A stretch of DNA of 64,000 nt, taken from NCBI GenBank assembly GCA_947628965.1, contig CANRBV010000002.1, positions 16,247-80,246 on the forward strand, written 5' to 3'. This stretch comes from an uncultured Bacilli bacterium (GTDB taxonomy: Bacteria; Bacillota_I; Bacilli_A; RF39; UBA660). A model generated the notes under the pieces. The model saw nothing but the letters and a program-made list of their open reading frames with translations, was not told the DNA's origin and did not search any database. This document shows, one piece after another, positions 11,904 to 61,413 of this stretch. Made by a program: the position numbers and the translations under genes. Every line of letters starts with the position of its first letter. The first letter of the stretch is position 1.

Positions 11904-11935
11904 AAGTTTTTAAACAAAATCATATACATTAATAG

Positions 11936-12307: not shown

Positions 12308-12328
12308 AGGATATGCCTTTATTTTTTA
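12306..12328 (+). terminator. rho-independent terminator
   Basis: AAAGG-atatg-CCTTT stem followed by a T-run. Confidence 0.4.
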
Positions 12329-12346
12329 ATTTTGGTTTAAAAATTC

Positions 12347-13793
<1,447 letters not shown>

Positions 13794-17871: not shown

Positions 17872-19470
17872 TCATTTTTTTAAAGTAAGAGTATATGTTT
17901 CTTCTAAATTTTTAGCACTCTTTTCTAATAATTTAATTGCACGATAATATTGATAATATTTTAGAGAAGATTCCGTTTTATCCGATTTGAATTGATTTAA
18001 TTCCATTAGATAAGGGCCATGTCTAAATCGAATAACTTCTTGAAAGTTAATAGGAAGTTGTTCAATTAATTTAAGCCAATCATAATAATTTAAAGAAGGA
18101 TATTTCTTTTGCAATTCCAATAATTTCCCTTTCATACCATATTCTTCTTTATCATTGGATTCATCATCTAAAATATAGTACTTTAACTTTTTCGCATAAG
18201 ATGAATTTCTTAATTTGTGTAAAGAGGCTTCTTCTATTTGACGAATACGTTCTGCTGTAACATGGAATTTTTTTCCCACTTCTTCCAATTTATAACATTT
18301 TCCATCTACTAAACCAAAGCGTAAACCAATCACTTCTTTTTCTCTTGCTGTTAATACAGTTAATAAAGCATTTACATCGTTTTTTAAAAATTTAGCAATT
18401 ACAACATCTTCTGGGGAAGCAATTTTATCATCAACAATATAGTCTTCTAAAGTAGAATTTTGCTCTTCGCCAATGAATGTATTTAAGGAAATTGGTTCTG
18501 TATCTAATCTTAATAATGTATGTATTTCTTTTGGATTCATGTTCATTAATCTAGCTAATTCCTCGATGGATGGTTCATAACCATATTTTAAAGTAAATAA
18601 TTTTTTTTCTTGATTTATTTTGAAGATTTTTCTTTCAATACTATCGGGTAGATGAATTGTTTTTACTTTATTTTTTAGAGCATTAATGATATTTTTTCGA
18701 ATGCACTTATTTGCAAATGTAGAGAATCGAACGCCTCTTTTATAATCAAAGTAATCCACTGCTTTTAATAAGCCTTCGTTTCCTTCCTGTATTAAATCAG
18801 AAATAGGCAAACCTTTTCCTATAAAATCTTTGGCAATACTTATAACCAAACGCAAATTATGTTCTATTAATTTTTTTCTAGCTTCTTGATCTCCCCTATC
18901 TTTTTTCTTAGCAAGTTCTATTTCTTCTTCTTTGCTTAATATGGGAATTTTTTTGGTTTCCCGTAAGTATATTTTAATTGAATTATTAAAATCGATTTCA
19001 CTTAAATATTCTTCTTTTTCATATTCAAAAGATTCTTCAACTTCCTTAGTCTGTCTATCTAAATAGCTATTATACAAATTCTTAAAGTTTAAATCATTTA
19101 AATCTAAAAATAGAGAATCAGGATTTTGTAATAAAGAAGAAAAAAATTGGTCAAAAATAGATAACTCTAATAAATTTATTATGTCTTCATTCGTTAGAGT
19201 ATAGTTCGTATCATTTAAAAATTGTAAAAAATAAGTCATTTTTTCAATAGAAAAATTTTCATTAATTTCGAGTAATTCTAAATAATTTTGCATTATCTCA
19301 AAATTCATATTCTTTTCTAAATAATTCATTATAAATTCATGTAACGCTTCGTCAAAATTTAAACTTTTCTTAGCTTTTTCAAATAATTTACTAAAAACGG
19401 ATTCTGAAATAGTACTATATTTATATTTTTGGTAATATTCTATTTGTTCTTCATCTAACATTATACTCAA
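17872..19470 (-). CDS. sigma-70 family RNA polymerase sigma factor, SigA-like but divergent in region 2.4 and carrying N- and C-terminal extensions
   Basis: Region 2 DLIQEGNEGLLKAVDYFDYKRGVRFSTFANKCIRKNI and region 4.2 LTAREKEVIGLRFGL...LEEVGKKFHVTAERIRQIE. The conserved ATWWIRQAI is replaced by ANKCIRKNI. About 95 aa follow region 4.2. Confidence 0.8.
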   Translation of the reverse strand: MSIMLDEEQIEYYQKYKYSTISESVFSKLFEKAKKSLNFDEALHEFIMNYLEKNMNFEIMQNYLELLEINENFSIEKMTYFLQFLNDTNYTLTNEDIINLLELSIFDQFFSSLLQNPDSLFLDLNDLNFKNLYNSYLDRQTKEVEESFEYEKEEYLSEIDFNNSIKIYLRETKKIPILSKEEEIELAKKKDRGDQEARKKLIEHNLRLVISIAKDFIGKGLPISDLIQEGNEGLLKAVDYFDYKRGVRFSTFANKCIRKNIINALKNKVKTIHLPDSIERKIFKINQEKKLFTLKYGYEPSIEELARLMNMNPKEIHTLLRLDTEPISLNTFIGEEQNSTLEDYIVDDKIASPEDVVIAKFLKNDVNALLTVLTAREKEVIGLRFGLVDGKCYKLEEVGKKFHVTAERIRQIEEASLHKLRNSSYAKKLKYYILDDESNDKEEYGMKGKLLELQKKYPSLNYYDWLKLIEQLPINFQEVIRFRHGPYLMELNQFKSDKTESSLKYYQYYRAIKLLEKSAKNLEETYTLTLKK

Positions 19471-19538: not shown

Positions 19539-20240
19539 TTAAGACAGAAAAAAATCAATTAAAACTGGTGCTAAAATAATAAGCAACATCATTGGAACAA
19601 AAAATAATACGGAAAGAACACTAATTTTTGTAGGAAGCTTGGAAATTTCCGCTTTGGTTTCTAGAATTTTCTTTTCTCTTAAATATTCTAATTGATTATT
19701 AATACTTGTAGCAACATTATTTCCATAAATACTTGATTCTGTTAAATTTAAAAGAATCGTATTAATAGCTTCGCTAGGAATTCTTTCTTTCATTAAAGCT
19801 AAACTTTCTGAAAAACTTTTTCCCATTTTTACATCAGAAAGCGTTTTTTTAAATTCATCGGATAATTCACTATCAATATTCTTCGTTGTAAGTTCTAATG
19901 CTCCTTTTAAGTAGGGATTGGTTTCGAGAGTTAAACTTAAAATTTCAAAGAAAAATAAAGCTTCATTTTCTAATTTCTTACAGCGCTTTTTAATTTTACT
20001 ATCGAATACTATTTGTTCACTAAAAAAGGAAAAAAGTACGACACTTACTGGGGCAAGAATAGCACCATGTTTTGTAAAAAATAGAAAGAATAGAAATAAA
20101 AGTATAGAACCAAAGAAACGAAAATTTAAAAAAGTAAATTCATCCATATTTTTATCTAGTCCTAAATAATTAGCTTTTTTATGAATCCTTTCTATCGTTT
20201 TTCTAGGATAAATATGATATGCAAAATAACTTCTTTTCAT
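19539..20240 (-). CDS. tadC: TadC-like pilus assembly platform protein (T2SSF domain)
   Basis: TM segments flank a cytoplasmic T2SSF-like domain. Last gene of the tad cluster. Confidence 0.55.
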   Translation of the reverse strand: MKRSYFAYHIYPRKTIERIHKKANYLGLDKNMDEFTFLNFRFFGSILLFLFFLFFTKHGAILAPVSVVLFSFFSEQIVFDSKIKKRCKKLENEALFFFEILSLTLETNPYLKGALELTTKNIDSELSDEFKKTLSDVKMGKSFSESLALMKERIPSEAINTILLNLTESSIYGNNVATSINNQLEYLREKKILETKAEISKLPTKISVLSVLFFVPMMLLIILAPVLIDFFLS

Positions 20241-21244
20241 TATATTTTCACCTCTAAAATCTTTTTAATGACCCATATATAAGATATATATAAAAGTAAA
20301 ATTAGTCCAAAAAGGATCCATCCAATTGGTGTTGAAAACAGAGGGTGAAAATAATTTGGATTTAAAAGAAGGATAAAAGAAACAAGAACTAAAGGTAAAA
20401 AAACTAAGATACGATATACAAATAGGCTTGAAGCAGTCAAGCTTTTTAATTCATCTCGCATTTTTTTCTTATTATAAAAAGATTTTTCAATAGTTTCAAA
20501 AACATTGGTAATATTTCCCCCAGTCTTATTTAATAAAGTTAGGGAAGAAGCAATATATTTTGCATCTTCTAGTTTTATTCTTTCATAAAATCGATTAAAA
20601 ACAACTTCTAAACTAAGCCCATAAGTCATATCTAAATAAATTTTTTTAAATTCATCTGAAATCGGTCCACTCAATTCATTTTTTACTGTTACAATGGCTT
20701 GCATAATATTTTTTCCAGATCTAAAGCTATTATTTAAAACCATTATGGCTTTCATTAAATCCTGCTCGATACTTTTCTTTTTTTTAGCAAATTGAATTTT
20801 TAAAAAAATATCAGGTAAGAAAAAACCTAAGATAAAAATAAATACTGTATAAAGAAATAGAATATGTTTTGTTTTAATAAGTGAAGTTACAATACTTAAA
20901 ATTGCACATAAGAAACCTACAAAAAATTTAATGGCTATATAATAAATAGGTTCTTTCTCATTTTTTTCCTGAAAAGAAATATATTTTTCATAGGAAAAAG
21001 CATACTTAGACAAAACCGTTGATTTTTTTAAAACTTTGCTAAATTTTTTTAAAAATATCTCTAGATGAAAAATAATTCTATCAAAGAAAGAAATGATTTG
21101 GTCTTCGTTTGTATGTAAACTAAACGCTTGAAAGCGCTTATTTAACTTAGCGTCTTGTAACCCATTATAAATGCCAAAAATAAGAAGAAAAATACCAATA
21201 AAACTTGCAAACAAAAGCAATAAAATAGGTATAGATATGCGCAT
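20240..21244 (-). CDS. tadB: TadB-like pilus assembly platform protein (T2SSF domain)
   Basis: 334-aa polytopic protein with a T2SSF-like C-terminal part; its ATG overlaps the tadC stop. Confidence 0.55.
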   Translation of the reverse strand: MRISIPILLLLFASFIGIFLLIFGIYNGLQDAKLNKRFQAFSLHTNEDQIISFFDRIIFHLEIFLKKFSKVLKKSTVLSKYAFSYEKYISFQEKNEKEPIYYIAIKFFVGFLCAILSIVTSLIKTKHILFLYTVFIFILGFFLPDIFLKIQFAKKKKSIEQDLMKAIMVLNNSFRSGKNIMQAIVTVKNELSGPISDEFKKIYLDMTYGLSLEVVFNRFYERIKLEDAKYIASSLTLLNKTGGNITNVFETIEKSFYNKKKMRDELKSLTASSLFVYRILVFLPLVLVSFILLLNPNYFHPLFSTPIGWILFGLILLLYISYIWVIKKILEVKI

Positions 21245-21268
21245 AAAATCACTCCTTTCCTTTTATTT

Positions 21269-22615
21269 TTATTCTTCATTTTTTTTAAATATATCTTCTA
21301 AATCGTAAATACCGCGCGAAAGTATTTTTTTATATACTTTTGGAATATAATCATTTAATATAAATTCCCCATCTACTTCACCACTTTCAGTTACCCCTAT
21401 TTGTTTAAAACTAAATATTTCTTTTAATTTAATTCTTTCTTCTTCAAAGCCTACAATTTCTGAAATGGAAGTAATTTTTCTTTTTCCATCGTTCATTCTT
21501 TCAATGTTTACAACAATATCAATGGCACTTGTTATATATTCTCGAATTGCTTTAATAGGAATATCTAAGCCACTCATTAAAACCATTGTTTCTAAACGAT
21601 TTAGGGCATCATGAACACCATTGGCATGCAAAGTAGTTAACGATCCATCGTGACCAGTATTCATTGCTTGTAACATGTCAAATGCTTCTTTACCACGAAC
21701 TTCTCCAACAATTATACGATCAGGTCGCATACGAAGCGAATTTTTAACTAAATCGCGTATAGTAATTTCTCCATCCTTATCATAATTTGTTACTCTTGTT
21801 TCCAAAGAAATAACATTTTTTTGATGTAAACGTAATTCAGCAGCATCCTCTATTGTTATAATTCTTTCTTGTGAGTTAATAAAACCGCTTAAAATATTAA
21901 GTAGAGTTGTTTTCCCACTCCCTGTTCCTCCACAAACAATAATATTCAGTTTCCCTTTTACTGCAGCTTCTAAAAATCTTGCCATATAGGGAGTAAGGGT
22001 ACCTATGCGAATTAAATCTTCAATACTAACCATCGTTTCTTTAAATTTACGAATTGTAATTACAGGTCCTTTCGTAGAAAGTGGTGGAATAACAGCATTT
22101 ATTCTAGAACCATCTAAAAGCCTAGAATCTACCATAGGATTTGCTGCATCGATAGTTCTACCAAGAGGTTCAATTAAACGCTCTATCGTTCTAATTATAT
22201 GTTCATCATTTATAAATGAAACGCTTTCATCTTTAATCAAACGACCATCAATTTCAATATAAATCTCATTTGGACTATTCACCATAATTTCCGTAATATT
22301 TTTATCTTCTAATAATTCTGTAAGAGGTCCATAGCCATTGATTTCATTATCAATTAAATTAAATAAGTGACTTCTTTCTAAGTTAGTTAAATCTTGTCCT
22401 TCAATAGCGGACTCAATTTCTTCATTAATAAATTCATTTAATATTTTTCCTTCAGGAATTTCTTTATCAATTAAATTTTCAACAATCCTTGTTCTTAAAT
22501 CATCTAACAATTTCTTATCAGGAAAGATTTCATAATCGGTAATGCTTTCTATTTTAGGGGTTTTTCTTTCTATATTAAAAGCATCAATTAGGCTTGTTTT
22601 ACTCATGAACATCAC
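21269..22615 (-). CDS. tadA: CpaF/TadA family secretion ATPase
   Basis: Walker [17 protein letters not shown] and the conserved [12 protein letters not shown] motif. Confidence 0.85.
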
Positions 22616-23384
22616 CTACTTTTTCTTTTTTTTCATCCAACAAATCTAAAGCCATATTCATTAGAGTTTCATAATCTTTATTAAAAGTAATGGCCATTTT
22701 ATTTTGTAAAGTAATTATTTCACCATTCATAACATAATCGTCAATGTTTTTTATATAAAAATTACTGGATAGAGTATAATCAATATTAGATTTTATAATA
22801 TTTTTAATATCAAATATAGAAAAATAATCTTTATAGGGATCACGACTATTATTAAGAAGAATTTTATAGTTCGTAATATTCGAATCTTTAAAAATGCTCA
22901 TTAATGATTTCATATTTTTTAAATCGAGTGGATCATTGGATAAAATAAAGAGTATTGTATCTACTTTATCTAGTGTGGTTACATTCATTTCATTTAAAAT
23001 ATGATTCGTATCAATTAAAACAACATCATAGTTGGATTCAGCCTTATCAATTAAAATATCCATATATTTTGAATCTATTTTATTACATTGCCTAGGATCT
23101 TTTGGACAAGGCAATATGTCAATATAATCATCATATTTTGTAACATAATTTTTAAATTCTTCATAGCGATTGTTATTATAATCGTCCACAAAATTAAAAA
23201 TTGTTTTTTCAAAAGGGCGGTTGAGGGCCATACTAATTCCTCCACTAGATAAATCCAAATCAAGTATCAAAATTTTCTTTTCTAAATGTTCAAAAATTCC
23301 CGCTAAATTGGTTGTAATTATTGTTTTTCCAACTCCACCTTTGGATGAAAAAACGCACATTGATTTTCCTTTTGATTTTGACAT
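22599..23384 (-). CDS. tadZ: TadZ/CpaE-like ParA/MinD-family ATPase
   Basis: Deviant Walker A SSKGGVGKT; overlaps tadA by 17 nt. Confidence 0.65.
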   Translation of the reverse strand: MSKSKGKSMCVFSSKGGVGKTIITTNLAGIFEHLEKKILILDLDLSSGGISMALNRPFEKTIFNFVDDYNNNRYEEFKNYVTKYDDYIDILPCPKDPRQCNKIDSKYMDILIDKAESNYDVVLIDTNHILNEMNVTTLDKVDTILFILSNDPLDLKNMKSLMSIFKDSNITNYKILLNNSRDPYKDYFSIFDIKNIIKSNIDYTLSSNFYIKNIDDYVMNGEIITLQNKMAITFNKDYETLMNMALDLLDEKKEKVGDVHE

Positions 23385-23393
23385 AGTATCCCT

Positions 23394-23771
23394 CTATTCT
23401 TTTTCTATTTTTAGTTCATTATTGATATAGAATACACTTTTTATTGCATAAGATTTTATTCCTATTATGTTTCCAAATATACTCTCTTTTTCATATTGTA
23501 CCTTAATTCTTACAAAATCTTTTTTATTCTCGATTTGCAAATTGTATGTAGGTATTTCATTTTCTTCTAATAAAGAAATGATTTTATCATCAAAAGATGC
23601 ATTTTCTTTTTCTTTATACGTTGTTCTTAAAATTGTTCTTAAAGTACTATTTAATCGTGTTTTTTCATTTAAAATAGTCCCAGTATCTACTACAAAAGCT
23701 AGTAATAAAAGAAGAAGTGGCAATAATAGAATAAAGACAATCAATGTTTGTCCATGCCTATTCATTGTCAA
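23394..23771 (-). CDS. TadE/TadF-like pseudopilin
   Basis: N-terminus GQTLIVFILLLPLLLLLLAFVVDTG is a TadE-like hydrophobic segment. Confidence 0.5.
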   Translation of the reverse strand: MTMNRHGQTLIVFILLLPLLLLLLAFVVDTGTILNEKTRLNSTLRTILRTTYKEKENASFDDKIISLLEENEIPTYNLQIENKKDFVRIKVQYEKESIFGNIIGIKSYAIKSVFYINNELKIEKE

Positions 23772-24111
23772 TCACTCTTTTTGCTGTTGCAACATATGGA
23801 TTTTTTAAAATCATATTTAATCCAGGTGTTATTACAGCAATTTCTTTTTTTAAAAATAAAGTTTCGTTTGTTTCATCTTTTGTTATTTCAAGGAATATAT
23901 GATCATGAGTAAGATCTAATTTCTTATCAATTTCCTCTAATGTATTCTCATTTTTGTATTCTGTAATGACATCATCCATTTTACTTTCTAAATTGTTCTT
24001 CACATATAATATTTTTCCAAAATCTAACATACTAAACAACATAAAAATAAAGACGGGTAAAAGAATGACAAACTCAACTAATGCTTGTCCATTACGTTTT
24101 GCTAACAACAT
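23758..24111 (-). CDS. TadE-like pseudopilin
   Basis: Internal ATG at 24109-24111 with GAAGGGG RBS gives MLLAKRNGQALVEFVILLPVFIFMLF, a TadE N-terminal motif. The track ORF extends upstream through the RBS. Confidence 0.5.
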   Translation of the reverse strand: MLLAKRNGQALVEFVILLPVFIFMLFSMLDFGKILYVKNNLESKMDDVITEYKNENTLEEIDKKLDLTHDHIFLEITKDETNETLFLKKEIAVITPGLNMILKNPYVATAKRVIDNE

Positions 24112-24172
24112 ATCACTACCCCTTCTATTATCGTTTTTTATTATAACATAAAAAAAACGCAAAGAAAAGTCT

Positions 24173-24376
24173 TTACGTATTTTTTTCTTGGCAAGTTCCT
24201 TCACCTGGTTTATTACCAGAAACATATTCTTGATCGACTAAAGAGCAGGAAGTTTTTGTTATAGAATCTTTTAAATAACCTCCAAAATAGCTAACTAAAG
24301 AAACGATTATGACACTAATAAGTGCAATAATTAGAACGTATTCAACTAACGTTTGTCCCTTATTATTTTTTAGCAT
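24173..24376 (-). CDS. flp: Flp-family type IVb prepilin
   Basis: ATG at 24374-24376 with AGGTGG RBS gives MLKNNKGQTLVEYVLIIALISVIIVSL... The class III leader G/QTLVEY fits the Flp prepilin motif; 67 aa. Confidence 0.7.
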   Translation of the reverse strand: MLKNNKGQTLVEYVLIIALISVIIVSLVSYFGGYLKDSITKTSCSLVDQEYVSGNKPGEGTCQEKNT

Positions 24377-43025: not shown

Positions 43026-43049
43026 AAATAAAAAGAGCCTATTAAGCTC
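43026..43049 (-). terminator. terminator (GAGCTTAATAGGCTC hairpin plus T-run) overlapping the stop codon
   Basis: Differs by 1 nt from the hairpin at 42234-42248. Confidence 0.4.
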
Positions 43050-44163
43050 ATTTTATTAATAATTCGTATGTATTGTGCCAAAAATCATCAATTTTTTCTT
43101 TTTCATTTTGACAAGATCCAAAAGTACATTTAATACTATTAAGATAAGTAAAAGAAAATATAGCTTCATTATCATTATTATATTGAGTATAAGTTAATTC
43201 CTTATTTGAAAGATTTAAACTCCATTCTTCAATAATTCTTAAGTTTATTCTTGTTAAATAAAGATTATTTAATAGCTGCATATAACTATATGTTAATACA
43301 CTGTTTTTATCTTTATATTCAAATATATAATTATCATTTTGTAAAGTAAATTTTTCTTTAATCTTTTCAACCAAAATACTTGAATCAGTATTTTTTACTT
43401 CATTTACATCAAAATTATTATTTACTACTTCTTTATAATTAATTTTAAATAAATTATCATTAATATAATCTTCCGTTAACCATAATTTTATATTATCAGT
43501 ATTACCATTATTATAATTTGCTTCAAGATATAAATTTGCAATTATATAATTAATTTTAGTGAAATCAAAATATGAATCATATCCATAATAATCAATAAAA
43601 TTAATATAGTTATTATCACTAGAATATATAACAACTTTACCATTATTTTCATCTTGGTAGTATAAAGTTAAATGTTCTATGGAATCATCACTGACAGTAT
43701 CATCAATTCTAAAATAAATTTTATTTTTAGTTTCGACGAAAATACCATCAAAATATTTAATTGAATCTTTTATTCCAGTTATAGTATAAACTTTAATAGA
43801 TTTGTATGACATTATAAAGTAATATATTAAAAAAAGTATTAATATTGCAAAAATTGTCAATAATAATATCGATATTATTTTCTTACGTTTATTATTGCTA
43901 TCATATAATTTCAAAGTAATTTTATTAACTATTGAATTCTCCTCTTTTTTAGACAATCTAGAGCCAACTAATATCTCATTTATAGTTACATCAAATATGT
44001 CACTTAATCTTAACAAAGTTGAAGAGTCAGGAATAGTTACTCCTCGTTCCCATTTACTTACAGCACCTCTACCAATTGGTATTAAATCTGCTAGTTGTTC
44101 TTGTGTTAATTCTTTTTCTTTTCTAAGTTCGTGAATAAATTTTCCAATATGTTCAGTATTCAT
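43048..44163 (-). CDS. membrane-anchored XRE-family transcriptional regulator with a large extracytoplasmic domain
   Basis: N-terminal HTH (LTQEQLADLIPIGRGAVSKWERG), a TM segment around residues 96-118, and a ~250-aa C-terminal domain. Confidence 0.65.
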   Translation of the reverse strand: MNTEHIGKFIHELRKEKELTQEQLADLIPIGRGAVSKWERGVTIPDSSTLLRLSDIFDVTINEILVGSRLSKKEENSIVNKITLKLYDSNNKRKKIISILLLTIFAILILFLIYYFIMSYKSIKVYTITGIKDSIKYFDGIFVETKNKIYFRIDDTVSDDSIEHLTLYYQDENNGKVVIYSSDNNYINFIDYYGYDSYFDFTKINYIIANLYLEANYNNGNTDNIKLWLTEDYINDNLFKINYKEVVNNNFDVNEVKNTDSSILVEKIKEKFTLQNDNYIFEYKDKNSVLTYSYMQLLNNLYLTRINLRIIEEWSLNLSNKELTYTQYNNDNEAIFSFTYLNSIKCTFGSCQNEKEKIDDFWHNTYELLIK

Positions 44164-46876: not shown

Positions 46877-47425
46877 TTAAAATTTAACTTGTACATTTGC
46901 TCTTTCAGTTTCATTTGCTTCAAAAAACATTTCTGTTTTAAATTTGAAAATAGAAGCAACAAAATTACTTGGTATTGTTTGTACTTGATTATTATAAGTT
47001 AAAACTGTATCATTATAGAATTGACGTGCACTTGCAATTTTATCTTCAGTTTCTTGTAATTCTGTTTGCAATGCCACAAAATTTTCATTCGCTTTTAAAT
47101 CTGGATAACTTTCTGCTAAAGCAAACAATTTGGAAATAGCTTTTGTAAGTTCTCCATCCGCTTTCATTTCTTCTTCTGGAGTATTTGCACTTAGAAAAGT
47201 ATTTCTCGCTTTAACAACGTTTTCTAATGTTTCACTTTCATGTTTTGTATATCCTTTTACAGTTTCCACTAAATTAGGTATTAAATCAAATCTTCTTTTT
47301 AATTGTACATCTATTTGTGCCCATTGATCCTTTACTCTATTTCTTAAAGTAACCAATTTGTTATAAGTTGATATAACAAACAAAATAATGAAAATAACTA
47401 TAGCCAGTACTATCCATTTAAACAT
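46877..47425 (-). CDS. lemA: LemA family protein
   Basis: N-terminal TM followed by [39 protein letters not shown]. Confidence 0.8.
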
Positions 47426-47492
47426 TTTATCTTCCTCCTATATTTATATTTTATCATATGTTCTTTCTTTAAGCAATACAACATAAAATGTA

Positions 47493-48305
47493 TTGGTGAA
47501 ATTTATGATTTTATTTACTGGATTTCTAATTGGTGTGGTAAGTCTAATCCCAGGTATAAGTGGAGGCACCATTTTAATGCTAACAAAACAATATGAAAAT
47601 ATCGCTTATGCTATTACACATTTTAAAGAAAAGAATAATTTTTTAACTCTATTTATTTTGATAATTGGAGTTATTCTAGGGGCTATTACATTTGCTAGAA
47701 TTATAGAATTATTTTTTTACTTTGCCCCAAATGCAACAATAACGTTATTCAGCGGTTTTGTTTTATTTTCAATTCCCGATCTCATAAAAAGTGAAAAAAT
47801 AAAACCAAATCTTGTTTGGTTTTTTCTAGGAACTCTACTTATTTATTTTTTATCTTGTATTCGCATTCCAACAACCCCTGTCATTATCAATTACCCAAAA
47901 ATTACAATTCTTTTTTTAATTATTTTCACTTTTTTTGGGATTTTAGATGGTTTTTTTACCATTTTACCAGGTATATCTGGCTCTATGATAATGATGATAC
48001 TGGGGCCTTATTTTTTATATAAATCTTACCTAGCCAACTTAAATATCCATAACCTTACTTTTCTTTTTCCACTATTTTTTTATTTTATTGGAGACATTTT
48101 AGGATTTTTTATTGGCAGTAAAGTTTCATTGTATTTTCTAACAAAGCATCGTAAAAAATTTTTAAGTTTACTGTTAGGAATGGTAGTCATGAGTGCATTA
48201 ATACTCTTACCAATTCATAATATTTACCCAAATAATATATTATTATACGTTGCTGTTTTTTTAGTAAGTTTTATTCTATGTCAAGCCTTAAAATTAATTA
48301 AATAA
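47493..48305 (+). CDS. DUF368-family membrane protein
   Basis: Duplicated (I/L)PGISG(G/S) motifs in a polytopic membrane protein. Confidence 0.55.
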   Translation: MVKFMILFTGFLIGVVSLIPGISGGTILMLTKQYENIAYAITHFKEKNNFLTLFILIIGVILGAITFARIIELFFYFAPNATITLFSGFVLFSIPDLIKSEKIKPNLVWFFLGTLLIYFLSCIRIPTTPVIINYPKITILFLIIFTFFGILDGFFTILPGISGSMIMMILGPYFLYKSYLANLNIHNLTFLFPLFFYFIGDILGFFIGSKVSLYFLTKHRKKFLSLLLGMVVMSALILLPIHNIYPNNILLYVAVFLVSFILCQALKLIK

Positions 48306-48312
48306 TTTCTAT

Positions 48313-49890
48313 TTAACTGGCTGATTCAGAACTAGCATTTTTTTCTACAGACAAAACGATACGAAAACCAATCGTATTATCTTGGGAACCATCTTTATTT
48401 GAAAAGCCAAAAATACCAGCATTTGTTGGAGAAGTCATATTAAATCCCCGTATAAAATAGTAGTTAGTATTAAATACGAATTCAGCTTTGTCATTCCAAA
48501 ATGAACTTTGGTTACTTTTAAAAGGACCAACTTCTCCTGTTGCATCTCCCAAAATTCTTGTACTATAGTTATCATTTTTTGTATTATAATTATAAATATC
48601 ATAATATTTATTCTCTTTTGGAAAGTTTTCTTCTGTAAAATTTGACTTTGTACCATATTGCAGTGTCGTACTGTCATTTCCATACATTATTGCCATAACT
48701 TCTTCTCTTGCACCACCACTCATATCATAAATTCCTGTATAATTTCCAGTTGTACTTGCTTTTACACTATTAATGTCATTATAGTTATAAGAGTTGCTAT
48801 TACTTTTACCTGCACTTACTGCACCAGCAGTTTTATTAGCCGTTGCTCCACTAAATCCTGTAATATAATTACTATTATTATTTATATATACTTCTTCACA
48901 AGATATTACGCCATCTTCTGCTTTTGTACACTTACCATAAATGCTTTTTGCTAGATATGCAACAGCTCCCCACTCTGTATTCTTCATTAAATGACTTTGT
49001 AAATCCGATTTATAATTAAATGAAGTTCTAAAAGCATTTCCGATACTTATCTTTCTCCAACTATAAACATTTGGTCTTATTATAATGTTTGCAGCCTCTG
49101 TATCGTTATTATGATTTTGTGCAGTTGTTTTATTTGTTATATTACTATTACTGGTCTCAAACTTCCCTACCCAAAATCCGTTAGTGTTTTCGAAAGCTAA
49201 GAATGCAGGATGGGTCATCCACATACCTTCTTTACAACTTCCTTCATCTCCAGATTTTTCAGGAGTTTTACATTCTTTATAATCTGAATCTGTTTCTTCA
49301 TCATCTTTGGTATTTTCTAGTCCAAACTCAATTTCTATTGCTTGATTTTGTTTTTCCGTATTTAATGTTCCATTATCATTTTCATAATTTCCTAATTGTT
49401 CATCAAATAGTTTATATTTATACTTAGGTATCCAGACAAAATAACTTTCGATATCACTCTCGGGTATTTGGTCTCCATTTTTATAATCATCCGCTGATTT
49501 TCCATCTACTAAGATTACGGCATTTGCCCAATTCTTTTTTTCATAACTATACCAATTATGGGTTATATCAGTTTTATATACATTTCCACTACTAGCTCCT
49601 ATACTAACAGGTATCATTCCATCTCCAAGCACTGGATCTGCTCCATTTAAAAAATCTTCTTTATAAATTTCACTTGGTTTATCGATATCAGGAGATTCTA
49701 AATCTGGATTTCGTAGAAGTTCAAAACCAGGAAGATCGTTTAAATACTCTTGGATATTTTGTTTTTCATGATTTAATAATACTCTATTTTTAGCATAACT
49801 AGCTGAAATCATTAAAAGAGTTACTAAAAAAACTAAAAAGAAGGAATAGATTAAAGAAATCGCTATAAACCCCTTATTGTTATTCTTCAT
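48313..49890 (-). CDS. membrane-anchored protein with pilin-like N-terminus and an FGE-sulfatase (SUMF1/EgtB/PvdO-like) domain
   Basis: N-terminus MKNNNKGFIAISLIYSFFLVF resembles the ComGC-like pilin at 57508 but lacks Glu5. The C-terminal half has NTEWGAVAYLA, GIYDMSGGAREEV and GFRIVL, which resemble FGE-sulfatase motifs. Confidence 0.45.
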   Translation of the reverse strand: MKNNNKGFIAISLIYSFFLVFLVTLLMISASYAKNRVLLNHEKQNIQEYLNDLPGFELLRNPDLESPDIDKPSEIYKEDFLNGADPVLGDGMIPVSIGASSGNVYKTDITHNWYSYEKKNWANAVILVDGKSADDYKNGDQIPESDIESYFVWIPKYKYKLFDEQLGNYENDNGTLNTEKQNQAIEIEFGLENTKDDEETDSDYKECKTPEKSGDEGSCKEGMWMTHPAFLAFENTNGFWVGKFETSNSNITNKTTAQNHNNDTEAANIIIRPNVYSWRKISIGNAFRTSFNYKSDLQSHLMKNTEWGAVAYLAKSIYGKCTKAEDGVISCEEVYINNNSNYITGFSGATANKTAGAVSAGKSNSNSYNYNDINSVKASTTGNYTGIYDMSGGAREEVMAIMYGNDSTTLQYGTKSNFTEENFPKENKYYDIYNYNTKNDNYSTRILGDATGEVGPFKSNQSSFWNDKAEFVFNTNYYFIRGFNMTSPTNAGIFGFSNKDGSQDNTIGFRIVLSVEKNASSESAS

Positions 49891-49936
49891 ATCTATTCCT
49901 CCTTATTTTTTTTAATTATAAACTATTTTAAGTATT

Positions 49937-50092
49937 CTAGCAATAATTTTTATTATAAATTCTTCGTATAGAAGAACCGACTGTACGACCCAATTCCAGT
50001 ACGGTAGTAATTAATCTAGCGACAGAATTTAATAAATTTGAAGTAATGGCTCCTCCTTTTAATTCATATAATTCAATTTCTTTTAATTTCAT
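49937..50092 (-). CDS. double-glycine-leader peptide (51 aa), candidate two-peptide bacteriocin component
   Basis: Absent from the track because it is under 60 aa. Translation MKLKEIELYELKGG/AITSNLLNSVARLITTVLELGRTVGSSIRRIYNKNYC; RBS AAAGGAA 8 nt upstream. Confidence 0.55.
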   Translation of the reverse strand: MKLKEIELYELKGGAITSNLLNSVARLITTVLELGRTVGSSIRRIYNKNYC

Positions 50093-50103
50093 ATTATTCC
50101 TTT

Positions 50104-50241
50104 CTAATTACATTTTAAAGGGCGTAGAATTCCATCAACTACTCCTGCTACAAAAACACCAACAGCTGTTAAAATACCAAGAAGTGTATAGCTAATTCCC
50201 CCTCCTACAATTTGATTTAATTCTTGCTCTTTTAAATACAT
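50104..50241 (-). CDS. double-glycine-leader peptide (45 aa) with GxxxG-rich hydrophobic core, candidate two-peptide bacteriocin component
   Basis: Absent from the track. Translation MYLKEQELNQIVGG/GISYTLLGILTAVGVFVAGVVDGILRPLKCN; RBS AAAGGTGAG. Confidence 0.6.
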   Translation of the reverse strand: MYLKEQELNQIVGGGISYTLLGILTAVGVFVAGVVDGILRPLKCN

Positions 50242-50248
50242 ATCCTAC

Positions 50249-50674
50249 TCACCTTTCTATTATTGATTTTGCTATTTTTTTAAGCAATCTTTCTTTGTTT
50301 TTATAAATTTGCATTGTAACAAATTCATTTTGATTCCCCTGAAATTTTTTTACTTTTAAAGAAATATTTTGTAAGGCATTATTATTACTATCCAAAACAG
50401 GATCTGAAAATGAAACGGTTTCTATTTCATAAGTTTTATGATTAATTTTAATAAATTCATAAATAAAATCTGTAGTGGGATAAAAAAAGTTAATAGTGCA
50501 TTCTTCTTGGCAAAAAATTTGTCCTTTTACTTCTAAAACATCATAAGCTTCTTTTTTGTAAGCATAAAATAAAAGTATTAGAAAAAGGCAAAAAGGAATT
50601 AACCAAAAAAAGCTATATTTATTTTTATCCTTATTTAAATAACTTGGTAAATTGTATTTTAAATATTCTGACAT
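50249..50674 (-). CDS. single-TM protein, candidate bacteriocin immunity or short accessory protein
   Basis: 141 aa with one TM segment; overlaps the ABC transporter stop by 16 nt. Confidence 0.35.
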   Translation of the reverse strand: MSEYLKYNLPSYLNKDKNKYSFFWLIPFCLFLILLFYAYKKEAYDVLEVKGQIFCQEECTINFFYPTTDFIYEFIKINHKTYEIETVSFSDPVLDSNNNALQNISLKVKKFQGNQNEFVTMQIYKNKERLLKKIAKSIIER

Positions 50675-52725
50675 AAAAGCTTGCTAAAATCATAAACTTC
50701 ATCAAAATATTGTTCCTGTTTTTTATGGCTTACATAAATAATCGTTTTATCTTTAAAATATTCCTTTAATTTTTTTATAATACTTATTTCTAATTCATCA
50801 TTTACTTCACTTAATGCTTCATCTAAAATAAGAATTTGAAAGTTGTTAAGTAAAGCCCTTGCTAAGATAATTCGTTGTCTTTCACCACCAGAAATATTAG
50901 TAGAATCTTTCATAAGAAACGTTTCATAACGTAATGGTTTTTTAGAAACAATACTCTCTATTTCACATATTTGTAAAATATCTAAATATTTACTTTCTAT
51001 TATCTCACGATTTAACAAAATATTGTTTTTAATGGTATCTTGAAATAAATTTTCTTTTTGACTTACATAAGTAATATTTTTGCGAATAGTTTCTAAGCTA
51101 TAGTCGTTAAGACTCACTTCTCCAATCTTAATATTATTATTTTTTACTTCAATTAAACGACTTAAAATTTGACATAAGGTACTTTTTCCACATCCGCTTG
51201 CTCCCTTAAATAAGACACAACTTTTTTCTTTAATTTCCAAAGAAAAATCTTGAAATAATTTAGAAAAATCATTATAAGAAAAATTTAAATGTTCTATTTT
51301 AACATTACCATTTTTAAAATCTTGTAGACCGATTTTGTCTTGCTCTTCTTCAATAGTATAAAAATCATTTAATTTTTGAATATTTACTTTTACATAATTG
51401 TAGCTTGGAATTAAATTAATAATTGATTTAAATGGGGTGAAGAAGAAGGAAATTAAACTTTCAAATGTTATTAAATTAATTAAACTACAACGATTGTTTA
51501 ACATTTCATATAAACCTATTGAAATAAGACAAAAATCAAGTAATTGCTCTAAAAAAGTTGCTAAGCTACTTGTTTGCATGACTTTCTTGTTTAAATCATA
51601 AGATTGATTTAAAAATTGAACTAAATGCATTTCAATTTTTTGAAAAAACAATTGCAAAATATTTAGATTTTTAAGAGAAATAATTGATTCTACATTTTCT
51701 AAGACGGTCGATTGAAACTGCACTTCACTATCATTTACTTGCAAAGCTTTCTTATACATTATTTTGCCAGAAATCATTCCAAAAACAATATAACAAAAAA
51801 CAAAAAAACAAAGAATAAAAAATAGTTTTTTATGAATGTGCCATAGAATGATGCCTACACTAAATGATAAAATAGAATCTAAACCTATCGTGACAATAAT
51901 TTCGGAAAATACTTCTTTCATATTTTCTAATTCTTTTATACGAACCATAATTTCACCAGTTGTTCTATCTTTCATAAAATAATGAGGAAGTAAAAATAAA
52001 TGATGCAAAAAATTGTAATACAATTGTCCATCTAAATTTTTATTTAAATAAGTTTTAAAATGATTGCGAAAAAACATAAACAAATACTTTAGAACATGTA
52101 AAGCTAAAAAAATAAGCATTACACACAAAAGAACTTTTTTATCTTCGCTATCTTGAACAAAATTTAAGCCAACTTTAAAATAAAAGCCAGTTAAGATTGT
52201 TATAAAAGTCAAAAACCCTGTTAAGAAAAAAAGTTTTAATAAGTTTTTCTTTTCATTTTTAAAGAACTCTATGATCATTTCCAACAAATGATTTTGATTC
52301 ACTACTTTTGGAAGAGGATTTTTAGGATACAAGCACAAGATATTACCAGTCCAAATAGCTTCAAAATCATTTTTAGTCATTTTTATATTCCCTTTAGCTG
52401 GATCCATTATTTCTATGTCTAAAGAATTTATTTTATAGATTACTAGGAAATGTGTGTAATGATTGATTTCGACATGTGCAATAATGGGTAATAAAGTTCC
52501 TTCTAGATCTTTTAAACTTTCTAATTTCATTCCATAGGCATCAAATCCATAATTTCTAGCTGTTTTAATAAGATGATAAGCCGTTGTCCCCTCTATAGAC
52601 GTTTGCGTATCTATCCGTAATATTTCAAGTGGTACATATCCGCCATAATATTTTATAATAGAAAGTAAAGAACAGATTCCACAATCTTTTAAATCCTGTT
52701 GTCTAACTACAATATTTTTTTTCAT
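50659..52725 (-). CDS. peptidase-C39-domain bacteriocin/peptide ABC exporter (ComA/LagD type)
   Basis: N-terminal C39 Cys motif QQDLKDCGICSL, 6 TM segments, Walker A GASGCGKST, signature ISGGERQRI. Start ATG 52723-52725 with AGGAGGTG RBS; the track's GTG start reads through the RBS. Confidence 0.85.
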   Translation of the reverse strand: MKKNIVVRQQDLKDCGICSLLSIIKYYGGYVPLEILRIDTQTSIEGTTAYHLIKTARNYGFDAYGMKLESLKDLEGTLLPIIAHVEINHYTHFLVIYKINSLDIEIMDPAKGNIKMTKNDFEAIWTGNILCLYPKNPLPKVVNQNHLLEMIIEFFKNEKKNLLKLFFLTGFLTFITILTGFYFKVGLNFVQDSEDKKVLLCVMLIFLALHVLKYLFMFFRNHFKTYLNKNLDGQLYYNFLHHLFLLPHYFMKDRTTGEIMVRIKELENMKEVFSEIIVTIGLDSILSFSVGIILWHIHKKLFFILCFFVFCYIVFGMISGKIMYKKALQVNDSEVQFQSTVLENVESIISLKNLNILQLFFQKIEMHLVQFLNQSYDLNKKVMQTSSLATFLEQLLDFCLISIGLYEMLNNRCSLINLITFESLISFFFTPFKSIINLIPSYNYVKVNIQKLNDFYTIEEEQDKIGLQDFKNGNVKIEHLNFSYNDFSKLFQDFSLEIKEKSCVLFKGASGCGKSTLCQILSRLIEVKNNNIKIGEVSLNDYSLETIRKNITYVSQKENLFQDTIKNNILLNREIIESKYLDILQICEIESIVSKKPLRYETFLMKDSTNISGGERQRIILARALLNNFQILILDEALSEVNDELEISIIKKLKEYFKDKTIIYVSHKKQEQYFDEVYDFSKLLCQNI

Positions 52726-52730
52726 TTTTT

Positions 52731-52780
52731 TCACCTCCTACTTATATATATACACTCTAAATTTGCAATTTCCTTTTTTT
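52731..52780 (-). promoter_or_regulatory. conserved 50-bp promoter/operator-like element, copy A (contains dyad AAATT-TGC-AATTT, TATATATA and RBS)
   Basis: 46/50 identical (ungapped) to 61364-61413, which lies upstream of comEA. Confidence 0.4.
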
Positions 52781-52815
52781 GGAGGCAAAAAGTTTATCAT
52801 TTCTATTAAGTTTTT

Positions 52816-53016
52816 TTATTTTTCATAAAAAATCGTATCGGGAGTACAACCCAGTATATTAGCAATATCTATGGCAATTTCATAATAAAGTTTTCTTTCT
52901 TTATGTTCCAATTGCCAATAAAAAGATTTGCTAATTTTTAACATAGTGGCCATATCTTGATAACTTAAGTTTTTTTGCATTCTTAATTTTTTTAATTTTT
53001 TATAACACTTTTTCAT
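52816..53016 (-). CDS. small XRE-family HTH regulator (about 66 aa)
   Basis: HTH LSYQDMATMLKISKSFYWQLE; ATG 53014-53016 has GAGGGA RBS. Confidence 0.55.
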   Translation of the reverse strand: MKKCYKKLKKLRMQKNLSYQDMATMLKISKSFYWQLEHKERKLYYEIAIDIANILGCTPDTIFYEK

Positions 53017-53118
53017 TTTATCCCTCATTTTTTAAATTATAGCACATTTTTATTACAATAACCCACCAATTTACGAATTTAAACTATTTTTTAGAGAAAA
53101 TTAGTATTAGGTGATTGT

Positions 53119-53565
53119 ATGTTAGATAAATTAAAGGAATTAAGAGAATACGAAGGTCTAACACAAAGAGAAGTTGCAGAAAAATTACATGTTAAAAGAA
53201 GTACATATGCTGGATGGGAAAATGGTAAAGATATTATTCCTTTAGAAAGATTAAATGCGCTTGCCAATCTTTATCACACTAGCTTGGATTATTTAATCGG
53301 CAATTCGCCAACCAAAGAGCAAGTTTTAGAGATTCAAAAGATTAATCAACAAGAATTTTCCCAAAATTTAAAAAAATTTCGAAAAGAAAAACATCTTACT
53401 CAAGAAAAATTAGCTGAAAAATTAAAAACAAGCCAATCTAATATTCATAAATATGAGAATAATAAGAGTTTAATTACAACCACATATGCCTTAGAATTCA
53501 CAAAACAGTACCATTATTCTTTAGATAAACTATTAGGAAGAAAAAAAACAACTAGCACAAAATAG
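53119..53565 (+). CDS. tandem-HTH XRE-family regulator
   Basis: Two HTH_3-like modules: LTQREVAEKLHVKRSTYAGWE and LTQEKLAEKLKTSQSNIHKYE. Confidence 0.65.
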   Translation: MLDKLKELREYEGLTQREVAEKLHVKRSTYAGWENGKDIIPLERLNALANLYHTSLDYLIGNSPTKEQVLEIQKINQQEFSQNLKKFRKEKHLTQEKLAEKLKTSQSNIHKYENNKSLITTTYALEFTKQYHYSLDKLLGRKKTTSTK

Positions 53566-53573
53566 TTGTTTTT

Positions 53574-53816
53574 TTAAAACATTTTATCAATATTTTTTGG
53601 AACTTTGTCATTAACAATTGTATTAATAATTTTATCTTCTTGTTCTTTCGTAACATTTTTACCTGTCATTAGACTTAATGTTGATATAACTTCTCTTAAC
53701 GTATTTTCATCTTTCATATTTCCTTGTTGAAGTTTTTTAGCTAAATTAACAATTGTATTTTTATCAACTTTAGTCTTTTTTTCGACTTTTTTAAAAAAGT
53801 CGTCTTTTAATTCCAC
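53574..53816 (-). CDS. small helical hypothetical protein (80 aa)
   Basis: ORF between XRE modules; no family recognised. Confidence 0.35.
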   Translation of the reverse strand: MELKDDFFKKVEKKTKVDKNTIVNLAKKLQQGNMKDENTLREVISTLSLMTGKNVTKEQEDKIINTIVNDKVPKNIDKMF

Positions 53817-53862
53817 TTTATCACCTACTAAGTATTATATGACAAAATTCTAATGGGTTTCT

Positions 53863-54075
53863 CTAATTTTTAAACTCTTCATAAAAAATATCATCAGGTT
53901 TTAAATGAAAAATAGAAGCAATTTCTTTAGCCATATCATAAGAAAGACGCCTATTTTTATGTTCAATTTGCCAATAATAAGCTTTGCTAATATTTAAAGA
54001 TTTTGCCATATCTTCACAACTTAAATTTCTTTTTTCACGTAAATTTTTTAATTTCTTTATATAGGTTGACTTCAT
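53863..54075 (-). CDS. small XRE-family HTH regulator (paralog of the 52816-53016 product)
   Basis: LSCEDMAKSLNISKAYYWQIEHKNRRL. Confidence 0.55.
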   Translation of the reverse strand: MKSTYIKKLKNLREKRNLSCEDMAKSLNISKAYYWQIEHKNRRLSYDMAKEIASIFHLKPDDIFYEEFKN

Positions 54076-54195
54076 AACTCCTCCGAATGATATTAATCAT
54101 ACCCTATATTTTAATAATTGTCAATTTTTGTGCAGTTCTAGTGTAGTAGACTTGTAAAATATAAAAATCTATTATTTATATTAAGGATGTGAAGT

Positions 54196-54453
54196 ATGAA
54201 AATAGAAACAATTATCGGAAATAATTTAAAATATTTTCGATATCAATCTAAATTATCTCAAGAAAAGTTTTATGGACAATTTGGAATGAATTATCGCTAT
54301 TTAGCAAGCATCGAACGTGGAAAAATTAACATGTCTGTAGAATTTTTAGACAACTTAGCTAAAGTATTAAAAGTGGATATTCGTGATTTTTTCAATCCCG
54401 ATAAAACCAGATGGGTATTTAAAAAACGTATTGATGGAAAAGAGAATAAATAA
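54196..54453 (+). CDS. XRE-family HTH regulator
   Basis: LSQEKFYGQFGMNYRYLASIERGK. Confidence 0.55.
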   Translation: MKIETIIGNNLKYFRYQSKLSQEKFYGQFGMNYRYLASIERGKINMSVEFLDNLAKVLKVDIRDFFNPDKTRWVFKKRIDGKENK

Positions 54454-61356: not shown

Positions 61357-61363
61357 AAAATTA

Positions 61364-61413
61364 TCACCTCCTACTTTTATATATACACCATAAATTTGTA
61401 ATTTCCTTTTTTT
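61364..61413 (-). promoter_or_regulatory. conserved 50-bp promoter/operator-like element, copy B, upstream of comEA
   Basis: 46/50 identical to 52731-52780; ends 7 nt before the comEA ATG and includes AGGAGGTGA. Confidence 0.4.

Follow-up and report, generated by a model that had tools for sequence, protein, structure and literature searches.

A putative clade-specific cassette of four XRE-family regulator genes at a sporulation locus of an uncultured Bacilli bacterium

Introduction

The DNA considered here, a 64,000-nucleotide window from an uncultured gut bacterium of the class Bacilli, contains between positions 52816 and 54453 a compact block of four small genes, here called xreA to xreD, which encode helix-turn-helix (HTH) regulators of the XRE family and are interleaved with a gene of the sporulation protein family SpoVIF. 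On the strength of gene content, synteny, selection, conserved cis-motifs, and promoter-like sites, all of which are observed features of the window and its relatives, the block is regarded with high confidence as a chromosomal module associated with a sporulation locus, and as neither a bacteriocin switch nor a phage relic. In the fuller reading that we favor, to which a probability of about one half is given, the four genes would form a vertically inherited, clade-specific regulatory cassette built into a der-spoVIF-spoIVA-hbs locus, with local auto- and cross-regulation and with read-through into spoVIF as its output; the particular regulatory logic is held with moderate to low confidence.

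Divergent pairs of XRE genes are well known, and a full-text search returned no description of a four-gene, five-HTH cassette interleaved with spoVIF and spoIVA. A set of four regulators maintained by selection amid two genes of coat morphogenesis is a candidate for lineage-specific control of sporulation. It would be an instance of a regulatory block layered onto an ancient gene pair, at a site that just downstream gathers cargo such as bacteriocin operons and surface proteins. The analysis also corrects the tempting but unsupported annotation of such a block as a "bacteriocin switch" or a "prophage immunity region."

Gene Content of the Cassette

All of the open reading frames (ORFs) of the block are present at the coordinates originally claimed for them (Table 1). 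A sequence-only reading of this DNA had described five small XRE proteins in two divergent pairs; the pairs and their positions were borne out, and the five proteins are in fact four genes with five HTH domains. Each of the four products belongs to the XRE/HTH_3 (Cro/C1-type) superfamily, with HTH_3 scores of 34.2, 101.7, 36.2, and 31.4 bits (XreA to XreD) against a Pfam gathering cutoff of 23. The tandem HTH arrangement earlier ascribed to XreB is upheld both by the Pfam matches and by an AlphaFold2 (AF2) model (pLDDT 89.3, pTM 0.81), in which two five-helix HTH domains, with helices spanning residues 2–59 and 77–138, are joined by a linker. XreA and XreC, the two minus-strand regulators, are indeed paralogs, sharing 56–57% identity as proteins and 72% identity as DNA over 191 nt. 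An alternative, longer ORF of 70 amino acids starts at 53028 for xreA, and the 66-amino-acid start (ATG at 53016) is backed by a GAGGG ribosome-binding site (53014–53026), by the ortholog alignment, and by gene callers. The recognition helix of XreC, ISK[AS]YYWQ[IL]E, is near-invariant across 17 orthologs, and XreD carries a basic C-terminal tail (KKRIDxK) that is kept in its ortholog alignment.

The 80-amino-acid ORF between the two pairs, previously taken for an anonymous helical protein, exists as described but is a member of the SpoVIF family (PF14069). Its gene lies on the same strand as xreC, 46 nt downstream of it, and xreB converges upon it with 8 nt between the two stop codons. The Pfam match extends over residues 8–79 of 80 and profile positions 1–72 of 72 and scores 75.8 bits against a cutoff of 27, which places the protein within the family; the NCBIfam equivalog for the Bacillus subtilis-type protein (NF052662) is matched at 73.8 bits, below its cutoff of 130. 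Judged by these scores, the window protein can be called a family member, functional equivalence to the B. subtilis protein not being demonstrated. The name given to SpoVIF by NCBIfam is "sporulation-specific transcription regulator." The AF2 model of the protein is poor (pLDDT 60), no solved homolog of it was found, only close relatives appear among the at least 120 homolog matches listed, and it matched none of the PADLOC and PHROG families.

Conservation Across Related Genomes

Eighty related loci (designated by L-numbers, with WIN for the window) were fetched by anchoring on the core gene der, and the window proteins were then mapped onto them. The closest relatives are metagenome-assembled genomes (MAGs) from rabbit, mouse, and ruminant sources, named "uncultured Bacilli bacterium," "uncultured Tenericutes bacterium," or Candidatus Ventrenecus. 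The full block, xreD<>xreC-spoVIF<xreB>xreA, stands beside der in WIN, L009–L014, L016–L018, L030, and L092–L094, which makes no fewer than 14 genomes at species level. Der identity to the window falls from 91% to 65% among L009–L014, L016–L018, and L030; L092–L094 were reached through distant XreB homologs (55–58% identity), and their block is identical in layout. Partial blocks were found in L015, where the contig ends, in L023 and L024, which have xreD, xreC, and spoVIF, and in L080, L025, and L077, which have these three genes and xreB. In a neighbor-joining tree of Der, which is a single-gene tree, all XRE-bearing loci fall within one clade.

Median pairwise dN/dS is 0.11 for xreD, 0.22 for xreC, 0.08 for spoVIF, 0.19 for xreB, and 0.21 for xreA, at dS values of about 1–1.5 that are saturated, and by these ratios all five genes are under purifying selection. 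Because the whole block recurs with its order and orientation kept in at least 14 species-level genomes, at median dN/dS values of 0.08–0.22, the arrangement is not a product of chance. The most conserved gene of the block is spoVIF, with 71–86% identity across loci in which Der is 65–91% identical. Homologs of XreB amount to 130 cluster representatives at E≤1e-5 in a database of 5.8 billion proteins, nearly all of them 54–92% identical to the query, and the family is restricted to this clade. The XreC subfamily is similarly narrow, with 39 representatives at E≤1e-10 among 1.84 billion.

The order in which the regulators were gained is less clear: the Der tree groups L030, with four XRE genes, with L025, L077, and L080, which have three, the XreA/XreC tree gives no resolution, and a simple stepwise accretion of XRE genes is not established from the two. 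A same-species metagenome contig (L006/L100; ERZ27248994 NODE_12469) carries a TTA-to-TAA nonsense change (L27*) in xreC, equivalent to about position 53996 of the window and upstream of the recognition helix; coverage there is only 2.2x, and the change could be an error or else a knockout variant that occurs naturally.

The Sporulation Locus

In most genomes the cassette is followed, downstream of xreA, by the gene for a 492-amino-acid SpoIVA and then by hbs, cdsA, and rseP. The SpoIVA protein matches PF09547, PF20438, and PF20439 and is annotated at source as stage IV sporulation protein A. Its gene comes directly after xreA in L016 (80-nt gap), L030 (45 nt), and L092–L094, and is separated from xreA by one to three variable genes in L010, L012, L014, L017, and L018. 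In L080, which is without xreA, xreB is divergent from spoIVA itself, and in L025 and L077 xreB is nonetheless divergent from spoIVA even though the spoIVA-hbs segment is inverted. The canonical layout may thus be written der / xreD<>xreC-spoVIF <xreB> xreA / spoIVA-hbs, a context that the sequence-only reading had left incomplete by missing spoVIF and, in the relatives, spoIVA.

In about 17 outgroup loci spoVIF stands beside der with no HTH ORF within 2.5 kb, and in L042, L046, L051, L052, L060, L061, and L067, likewise with no HTH ORF within 2.5 kb, it lies 37–87 nt upstream of spoIVA on the same strand. Since spoVIF is found beside der and just upstream of spoIVA outside the XRE clade, the ancestral order is read as der-spoVIF-spoIVA-hbs, the der...spoIVA-hbs part of which we take to resemble the arrangement in B. 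subtilis. On this comparative evidence the presence of spoVIF at the locus predates that of the XRE genes, which were probably inserted at the der/spoVIF and spoVIF/spoIVA junctions of the ancestral locus. As spoVIF and spoIVA are adjacent beside der in relatives that lack XRE genes, the locus into which the cassette appears to have been built is one of spore-coat morphogenesis.

The spoIVA gene of the window's own genome is neither within the 64 kb nor just beyond the right edge; outside the window, spoIVA was found only in the nearest relative's MAG and in a further MAG from rabbit. In the former (L095, CANRJW010000025.1, 98–4108; the MAG of L009), spoIVA-hbs has been relocated to another contig, where it is divergent from cdsA-rseP and retains its hairpin and CATAGGGTTAAATAG. 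In the latter (L105, 6001–7479), spoIVA stands in a third context, without hbs.

From its gene content the clade is sporogenous, with CotE near the block in L092 and L094, SpoIVA in the MAG of L009, and spoIIGA with a sigma-factor gene in L079. In the last of these (11451–15370), der is followed by ftsA-ftsZ-spoIIGA and the adjacent sigma-factor gene, which replace the XRE/spoVIF block, a layout that suggests both the presence of pro-sigma-E processing machinery in the clade and a proneness of the der-side region to rearrangement. For uncultured Bacilli orders related to Mycoplasmatales (RF39, RFN20, and ML615J-28), genome surveys have led to the prediction of sporulation from a gene set that is reduced, also in its regulators, and differently controlled (PMC10868615). 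A co-loss of the cassette with sporulation genes was looked for and discarded, as clade members without the block beside der are rearranged and not clearly asporogenous (e.g., L079).

Control Regions of the Divergent Pairs

Each divergent pair has one common intergenic region of 90–130 nt, here termed IG1 (between xreC and xreD) and IG2 (between xreA and xreB). In IG1, the −35 boxes of the two opposed promoters lie back to back about 22 bp apart. An alignment of 17 orthologous regions retains the core AAGTCyACyA.AC.ATAACT.CAC-AAAATTGAC...GTATGAT in all 17 genomes, and the tandem repeat pattern occurs once in the window, against 0.02 matches expected by chance. The blocks of IG2 are near-invariant in an alignment of 11 orthologous regions, GTGGGTTATTGTAAT being kept in the 10 closest of the 11 genomes, and its motifs are present in single copy in the window and in each related locus. 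The motifs of both regions are near-invariant while dS is about 1–1.5; as synonymous sites are saturated at this distance, such intergenic conservation marks functional cis-elements. In the simplest reading, the motifs additional to the promoters are probable operators for the adjacent regulators. No further copies of the IG1 or IG2 motifs occur in the 64 kb or elsewhere in the related loci, from which no extra targets can be inferred.

A layout homologous to IG2, GTGGGGG...TACAAT, is found between xreB and spoIVA in L080, L077, and L025. Because these genomes are without xreA, IG2 is older than xreA.

Promoter Motifs of spoVIF and spoIVA

The gap between xreC and spoVIF is 25–46 nt in all genomes that have the pair, and no terminator is predicted within it. 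A motif of the form yCATATAwTA is kept about 7 nt upstream of the spoVIF ribosome-binding site, represented in the window by TCATATAATA, with AAACCC about 15 nt further upstream. In 32 of 34 loci the pattern CATAnnnTA falls within the 60 nt that precede spoVIF, compared with 36 of 938 control ORFs (4%); its extended form, AC-N14-17-CATAnnnTA, is seen in 27 of 34 loci compared with 17 of the 938 controls. Upstream of spoIVA, CATAnnnT is present in 19/19 loci (e.g., CATAGGGTTAAATAG and CATATAGTT) against 11% of control ORFs, and in the crown clade it is preceded by a hairpin and a T-run. The sequence CATAGGGT cannot serve as a sigma-A −10, and the spoVIF motif reads as a putative promoter of the mother-cell type (sigma-E/K-like); the assignment of this and the spoIVA motif to sigma-E or sigma-K was made from what we take to be the B. 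subtilis consensus. Promoters of sigma-E and sigma-K have the same −10 (PMC517825).

The stop codons of spoVIF and xreB are 7–30 nt apart across genomes, a spacing that forces the two transcripts to overlap or else to stop within the coding sequence of the opposite gene. Inside the 5′ coding region of spoVIF, at 53783–53802 (+), is a terminator-like hairpin, CGACTTTTTTAAAAAAGTCG, with a T-run after it; this hairpin could stop xreB transcripts after antisense passage through most of that gene.

A Model for the Cassette

Were the cassette to work as we favor, the Xre proteins would bind the motifs of IG1 and IG2 and would auto- and cross-regulate their own promoters. Transcription from the xreC promoter would read into spoVIF, no terminator being predicted between them, and would thereby add an XRE-gated route to SpoVIF atop the mother-cell-type promoter that spoVIF itself appears to have. 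Transcription of xreB, being antisense to spoVIF, would oppose spoVIF output. The promoter of xreA would point at spoIVA, or at cargo that has landed there, with spoIVA keeping its own hairpin and promoter; in the present genome, a bacteriocin-export island with a promoter of its own has been inserted downstream of xreA. DNA binding, the direction of repression, any bistability, and a link to the timing of sporulation are thus matters that we infer from the arrangement of genes and sites.

Several points weigh against this model. Both spoVIF and spoIVA retain their own conserved promoter motifs, spoIVA even when relocated (L095), so that neither gene needs the XRE promoters. In no locus did a further copy of the IG1 or IG2 motifs turn up, whether ahead of spoIVA or at another site, and a target beyond the cassette is not shown. 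Moreover, this genome and its two nearest island-bearing relatives no longer have spoIVA beside the cassette, genomic position alone is no proof of a role in sporulation, and the Der tree, as noted, is built on one gene, with dS saturated.

In a bolder extension, SpoVIF would have as its DNA-binding partner XreC and, through duplication, XreA as well, and these would be united with XreD and XreB in a lineage-specific developmental module that gates spoVIF and spoIVA. As PMC13553755 relates, citing Kuwana (2004), SpoVIF of B. subtilis has a functional link to GerE, a small HTH regulator. This precedent makes an XreC-SpoVIF partnership an attractive, if unproven, extension, but the full module is one that we hold to be rather unlikely. 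If it were true, uncultured gut spore-formers with reduced genomes, in which many of the classical sporulation regulators are gone, would possess an analog of SpoVIF-GerE made of XRE parts, in which a single-chain double-HTH protein reads an asymmetric operator.

The Bacteriocin Operon and the Cargo Site

In the window, xreA is immediately followed by an operon that encodes a C39-ABC transporter, a 141-amino-acid protein, and two double-glycine peptides. The peptides, of 51 and 45 amino acids, have double-glycine leaders and are encoded at 49937–50241 (−). The 45-amino-acid peptide scores 34.7 bits against a cutoff of 37 for the lactococcin G-beta/enterocin 1071B family, and the pair suggests a class IIb two-peptide bacteriocin. 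After the peptides comes a gene (48313–49890, −) for a 525-amino-acid protein that has a pilin-like hydrophobic N-terminus and no Pfam match; paralogs of it are found in relatives upstream of an N_methyl pseudopilin-der pair (L009 8241–9479; L080 3724–9108, in three tandem copies).

The junction between xreA and spoIVA holds accessory genes that vary by species, namely the bacteriocin island, a DUF285 surface protein, a serine hydrolase, a SpaA/TED adhesin, and ORFs without assignment (intervals in Table 1), and it behaves as a hot spot at which cargo is inserted. Only in the window and L011 does the operon lie immediately downstream of xreA. In L009 the operon is set off from xreA by 2 kb, with a gene for a 531-amino-acid DUF285 surface protein in between; in L014 it is found across der from the cassette, 6–8.5 kb upstream of der; and in at least nine genomes with the cassette (L010, L012, L016–L018, L030, and L092–L094) no C39-ABC operon is present in the fetched DNA, which extends 5–8 kb downstream of xreA. 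The linkage that would characterize a dedicated regulator of the operon is therefore not conserved across genomes.

The shared 50-bp element remarked upon in the sequence-only reading is real. It measures 53 nt, occurs in two copies only in the 64 kb (52728–52780 and 61361–61413, with 91% identity), and precedes both the ABC operon and comEA. Its core, A7-8-GGAAAt-N14-GTGTATATAT, together with a ribosome-binding site, precedes the ABC operon wherever that operon is located (L009, about 15025–15075; L011, about 5120–5170; L014, about 1395–1440). The element looks like a promoter for an alternative, competence-type sigma factor, and we take it to resemble sigma-H/ComX promoters; if it is such a promoter, bacteriocin export would be coupled to DNA-uptake genes.

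A 371-amino-acid XRE protein is encoded at 43048–44163 (−) and has an N-terminal HTH, one transmembrane helix (at about residues 97–119), and a large domain without a family match. It was considered as an RNPP/Rgg-type quorum regulator of the peptide operon and ruled out, being a membrane-anchored XRE protein.

Alternative Explanations

The sequence-only reading had made of the block two CI/Cro-like bistable switches that mainly control the C39-ABC/two-peptide operon, and perhaps comE, through the shared element. In favor of this, xreA directly precedes the operon in this genome and in L011, the two sharing a strand and not being separated by a strong terminator, and small XRE repressors are known beside bacteriocin and cytolysin operons, CylR2 being among the structural matches found here. 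The cassette is nonetheless conserved in the nine or more genomes whose fetched DNA is without the operon, the operon is always accompanied by its own conserved promoter element, and the gene downstream of xreA in most genomes is spoIVA. The candidate operators of IG1 and IG2 are absent from the 50-bp element, from the region upstream of comEA, and from the rest of the 64 kb. As the operon is variable in position, often absent, and provided with its own promoter element, there is no comparative support for the XRE stack serving it, and control of the operon as the main function is improbable; transcripts that start at the xreA promoter may run on into the ABC operon in this genome.

The likeness to a CI/Cro switch lies in the two divergent pairs, each with a common region bearing promoters and conserved motifs (predicted operators) as in auto- and cross-regulating repressors, but the location is not that of a prophage or mobile element, the chromosomal position being fixed in at least 14 genomes, and no Peptidase_S24 or C-terminal oligomerization domain is present in the single-domain proteins of 66, 70, and 85 amino acids, the 148-amino-acid protein having a second HTH instead. 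The comparison with CI/Cro, ImmR, and SinR that had been proposed was carried out with structures and profiles and gave generic XRE-fold matches. No anti-repressor metalloprotease of the ImmA/IrrE type is encoded at 50–57 kb, and no SinI-type domain is found in the five proteins at E≤0.1, the only non-HTH partner being the SpoVIF-family protein. Foldseek neighbors of the XreB domains are an arbitrium-phage repressor, C proteins, the N-terminal domains of SinR and ImmR, P22 c2, and CylR2; all are single-domain matches (TMq ≤0.44), and none spans both domains. These features leave room for the cassette to be a domesticated immunity remnant of a phage or of an integrative and conjugative element (ICE), or a set of general-purpose XRE regulators, placed between spoVIF and spoIVA by accident and serving a regulon that is elsewhere and unconnected with sporulation. 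Such a reading, which we consider possible though doubtful, gains from the fact that divergent XRE pairs are typical of the immunity regions of mobile elements, that the PHROG matches are to phage repressor families and the nearest solved structures are phage repressors (9iaq, 9sf2) and ImmR, that phage tandem-HTH regulators are about 30–33% identical to XreB, that cargo genes accumulate downstream of xreA, and that no operator copy was found upstream of spoIVA. It has to contend with the absence of adjacent integrase, phage, transposase, and tRNA genes, with a GC content that is flat across the region, and with a viral-contig scan that returned no close relative; the genes that flank the block are der, an SDF symporter gene, the C39-ABC operon, and genes for LemA and DUF2207, with spoIVA-hbs in relatives. 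It must also account for a fixed chromosomal position with four XRE genes under purifying selection across a deep clade, for an xreB-spoIVA pairing that survives inversion (L025 and L077 against L080), and for the constant placement of xreC 25–46 nt upstream of spoVIF. A prophage or ICE remnant proper, which had been raised earlier as the alternative, was rejected on these grounds and because a tblastn search of phages found no match to XreB above 33% identity and none but partial ones to XreC; an ancient mobile-element origin of parts of the cassette is possible. A toxin-antitoxin or defense-control module, with the XRE proteins as antitoxins or as controllers of the restriction-modification (R-M) type, is scarcely credible: the weak profile matches to the antitoxins HipB, HigA, MqsA, and PezA and to an R-M "control protein" (XreD, E=5.5e-12) span the generic HTH domain only and fall far under the family cutoffs, no toxin, restriction, or methylase genes are adjacent, and no known toxin family is represented among the neighbors, so that this candidate was ruled out.

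Comparison With Known Systems

Among characterized systems, SinR/SinI of B. subtilis and SinR/SinR′ of Clostridioides difficile are similar in consisting of small XRE regulators encoded by adjacent, related genes in spore-formers, and the N-terminal domain of SinR is a structural match. Both systems are linked to developmental decisions, in that they regulate sporulation and alternative lifestyles. Unlike SinR/SinI, the cassette is without a SinI-type multimerization domain, has divergent pairs instead of a co-directional sinIR operon, includes a tandem double-HTH protein, and is embedded between spoVIF and spoIVA; its putative link to sporulation is a genomic one. With phage CI/Cro (434 and P22 c2/Cro) and ICEBs1 ImmR, it has in common divergent XRE genes over an operator-bearing region, the XRE fold, and Cro-sized proteins of 66–70 amino acids, but it differs from these in vertical inheritance at a fixed site and in having no mobile context, S24 or oligomerization domain, or ImmA protease.

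The pairing of SpoVIF with GerE (Kuwana 2003, 2004, cited in PMC13553755) is similar in that a SpoVIF-family protein is associated with an HTH factor of about 70 amino acids in a context of coat assembly. GerE, however, has an HTH of the LuxR type and is not encoded beside spoVIF in B. subtilis, whereas XreC is of the XRE type and the pairing here is genomic only. R-M controller proteins (C.AhdI, C.BclI, and C.Esp1396I) are XRE proteins of about 80 amino acids that autoregulate via paired sites beside their own promoter; their profile is the best PADLOC match of XreD and they appear among the structural matches, but here no restriction or methylase genes are adjacent and the likeness is confined to the generic HTH fold. 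Finally, CylR1/CylR2 offers a parallel for a 66-amino-acid XRE protein beside a peptide-toxin export operon in this genome, and CylR2 matches in structure; unlike that system, the bacteriocin linkage here is not conserved, there is no CylR1-like membrane partner, and the promoter element of the operon is held in common with comEA.

Table 1. Positions of the cassette genes, their control elements, and the intervals downstream of xreA (window coordinates unless a related locus is named).
Feature	Position	Strand	Description
xreA	52816–53016	−	66 aa, single XRE/HTH domain; Pfam HTH_19 E=3e-11, HTH_3 E=3e-8
xreB	53119–53565	+	148 aa, two XRE HTH domains; Pfam HTH_3 E=2e-29, two stretches
SpoVIF-family gene	53574–53816	−	80 aa; PF14069 E=2e-21, 75.8 bits
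xreC	53863–54075	−	70 aa, single XRE/HTH domain; Pfam HTH_19 E=4e-10, HTH_3 E=6e-9
xreD	54196–54453	+	85 aa, XRE/HTH; Pfam HTH_3 E=2e-7
IG1, xreC<>xreD divergent control region	54076–54195		Back-to-back sigma-A-type promoters
PxreC	54124..54096	−	TTGACA-17-TATGAT; near-consensus, 11/12 matches in promoter scan
PxreD	54147–54175	+	TAGACT-17-TATTAT; weaker, 9/12 matches in promoter scan
IG1 tandem repeat ACTACAC-N4-ACTGCAC	54130–54147	−	Between the two −35 boxes, 11-bp register
IG2, xreA<>xreB divergent control region	53017–53118		Three conserved elements
xreA extended −10, TGTGCTATAAT	53036–53046	−	In IG2; TGnTATAAT type
GTGGGTTATTGTAAT	53052–53066	−	In IG2; near-dyad TTATTGTAATAA inside; spans xreA −35 and spacer positions
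TTTTTTAGAGAAAATTA	53087–53103	+	In IG2; just upstream of xreB ribosome-binding site
TAATTTTCTCTAAAAAA			IG2 motif
xreC-spoVIF spacer	53817–53862	−	TCATATAATA motif at 53832–53842 (−), about 7 nt upstream of spoVIF ribosome-binding site
xreA-downstream junction, window	47000–52800
xreA-downstream junction, L009	13306–14901
xreA-downstream junction, L014	13510–14064
xreA-downstream junction, L017	5628–9353
xreA-downstream junction, L010	5114–6220
xreA-downstream junction, L012	13042–15348
xreA-downstream junction, L018	13059–14533

Other Features of the Window

A search for Rfam RNA families in the window found none. Between positions 9500 and 19500, the gene order is ruvA-ruvB-queA-tgt-...-DUF3792-DUF421(YetF)-SpoVB-like flippase-ComN-like-relA-dtd-...-hisS-aspS, which presumably mirrors the ruvAB...spoVB...relA region of B. 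subtilis. A sigma-70 protein of 532 amino acids with a long N-terminal extension is encoded at 17872–19470. Positions 19539–24225 (−) hold a locus for a Tad-type pilus, which comprises two T2SSF genes, two ATPases (one T2SSE, one ParA/CpaE-like), and TadE-like pseudopilins.

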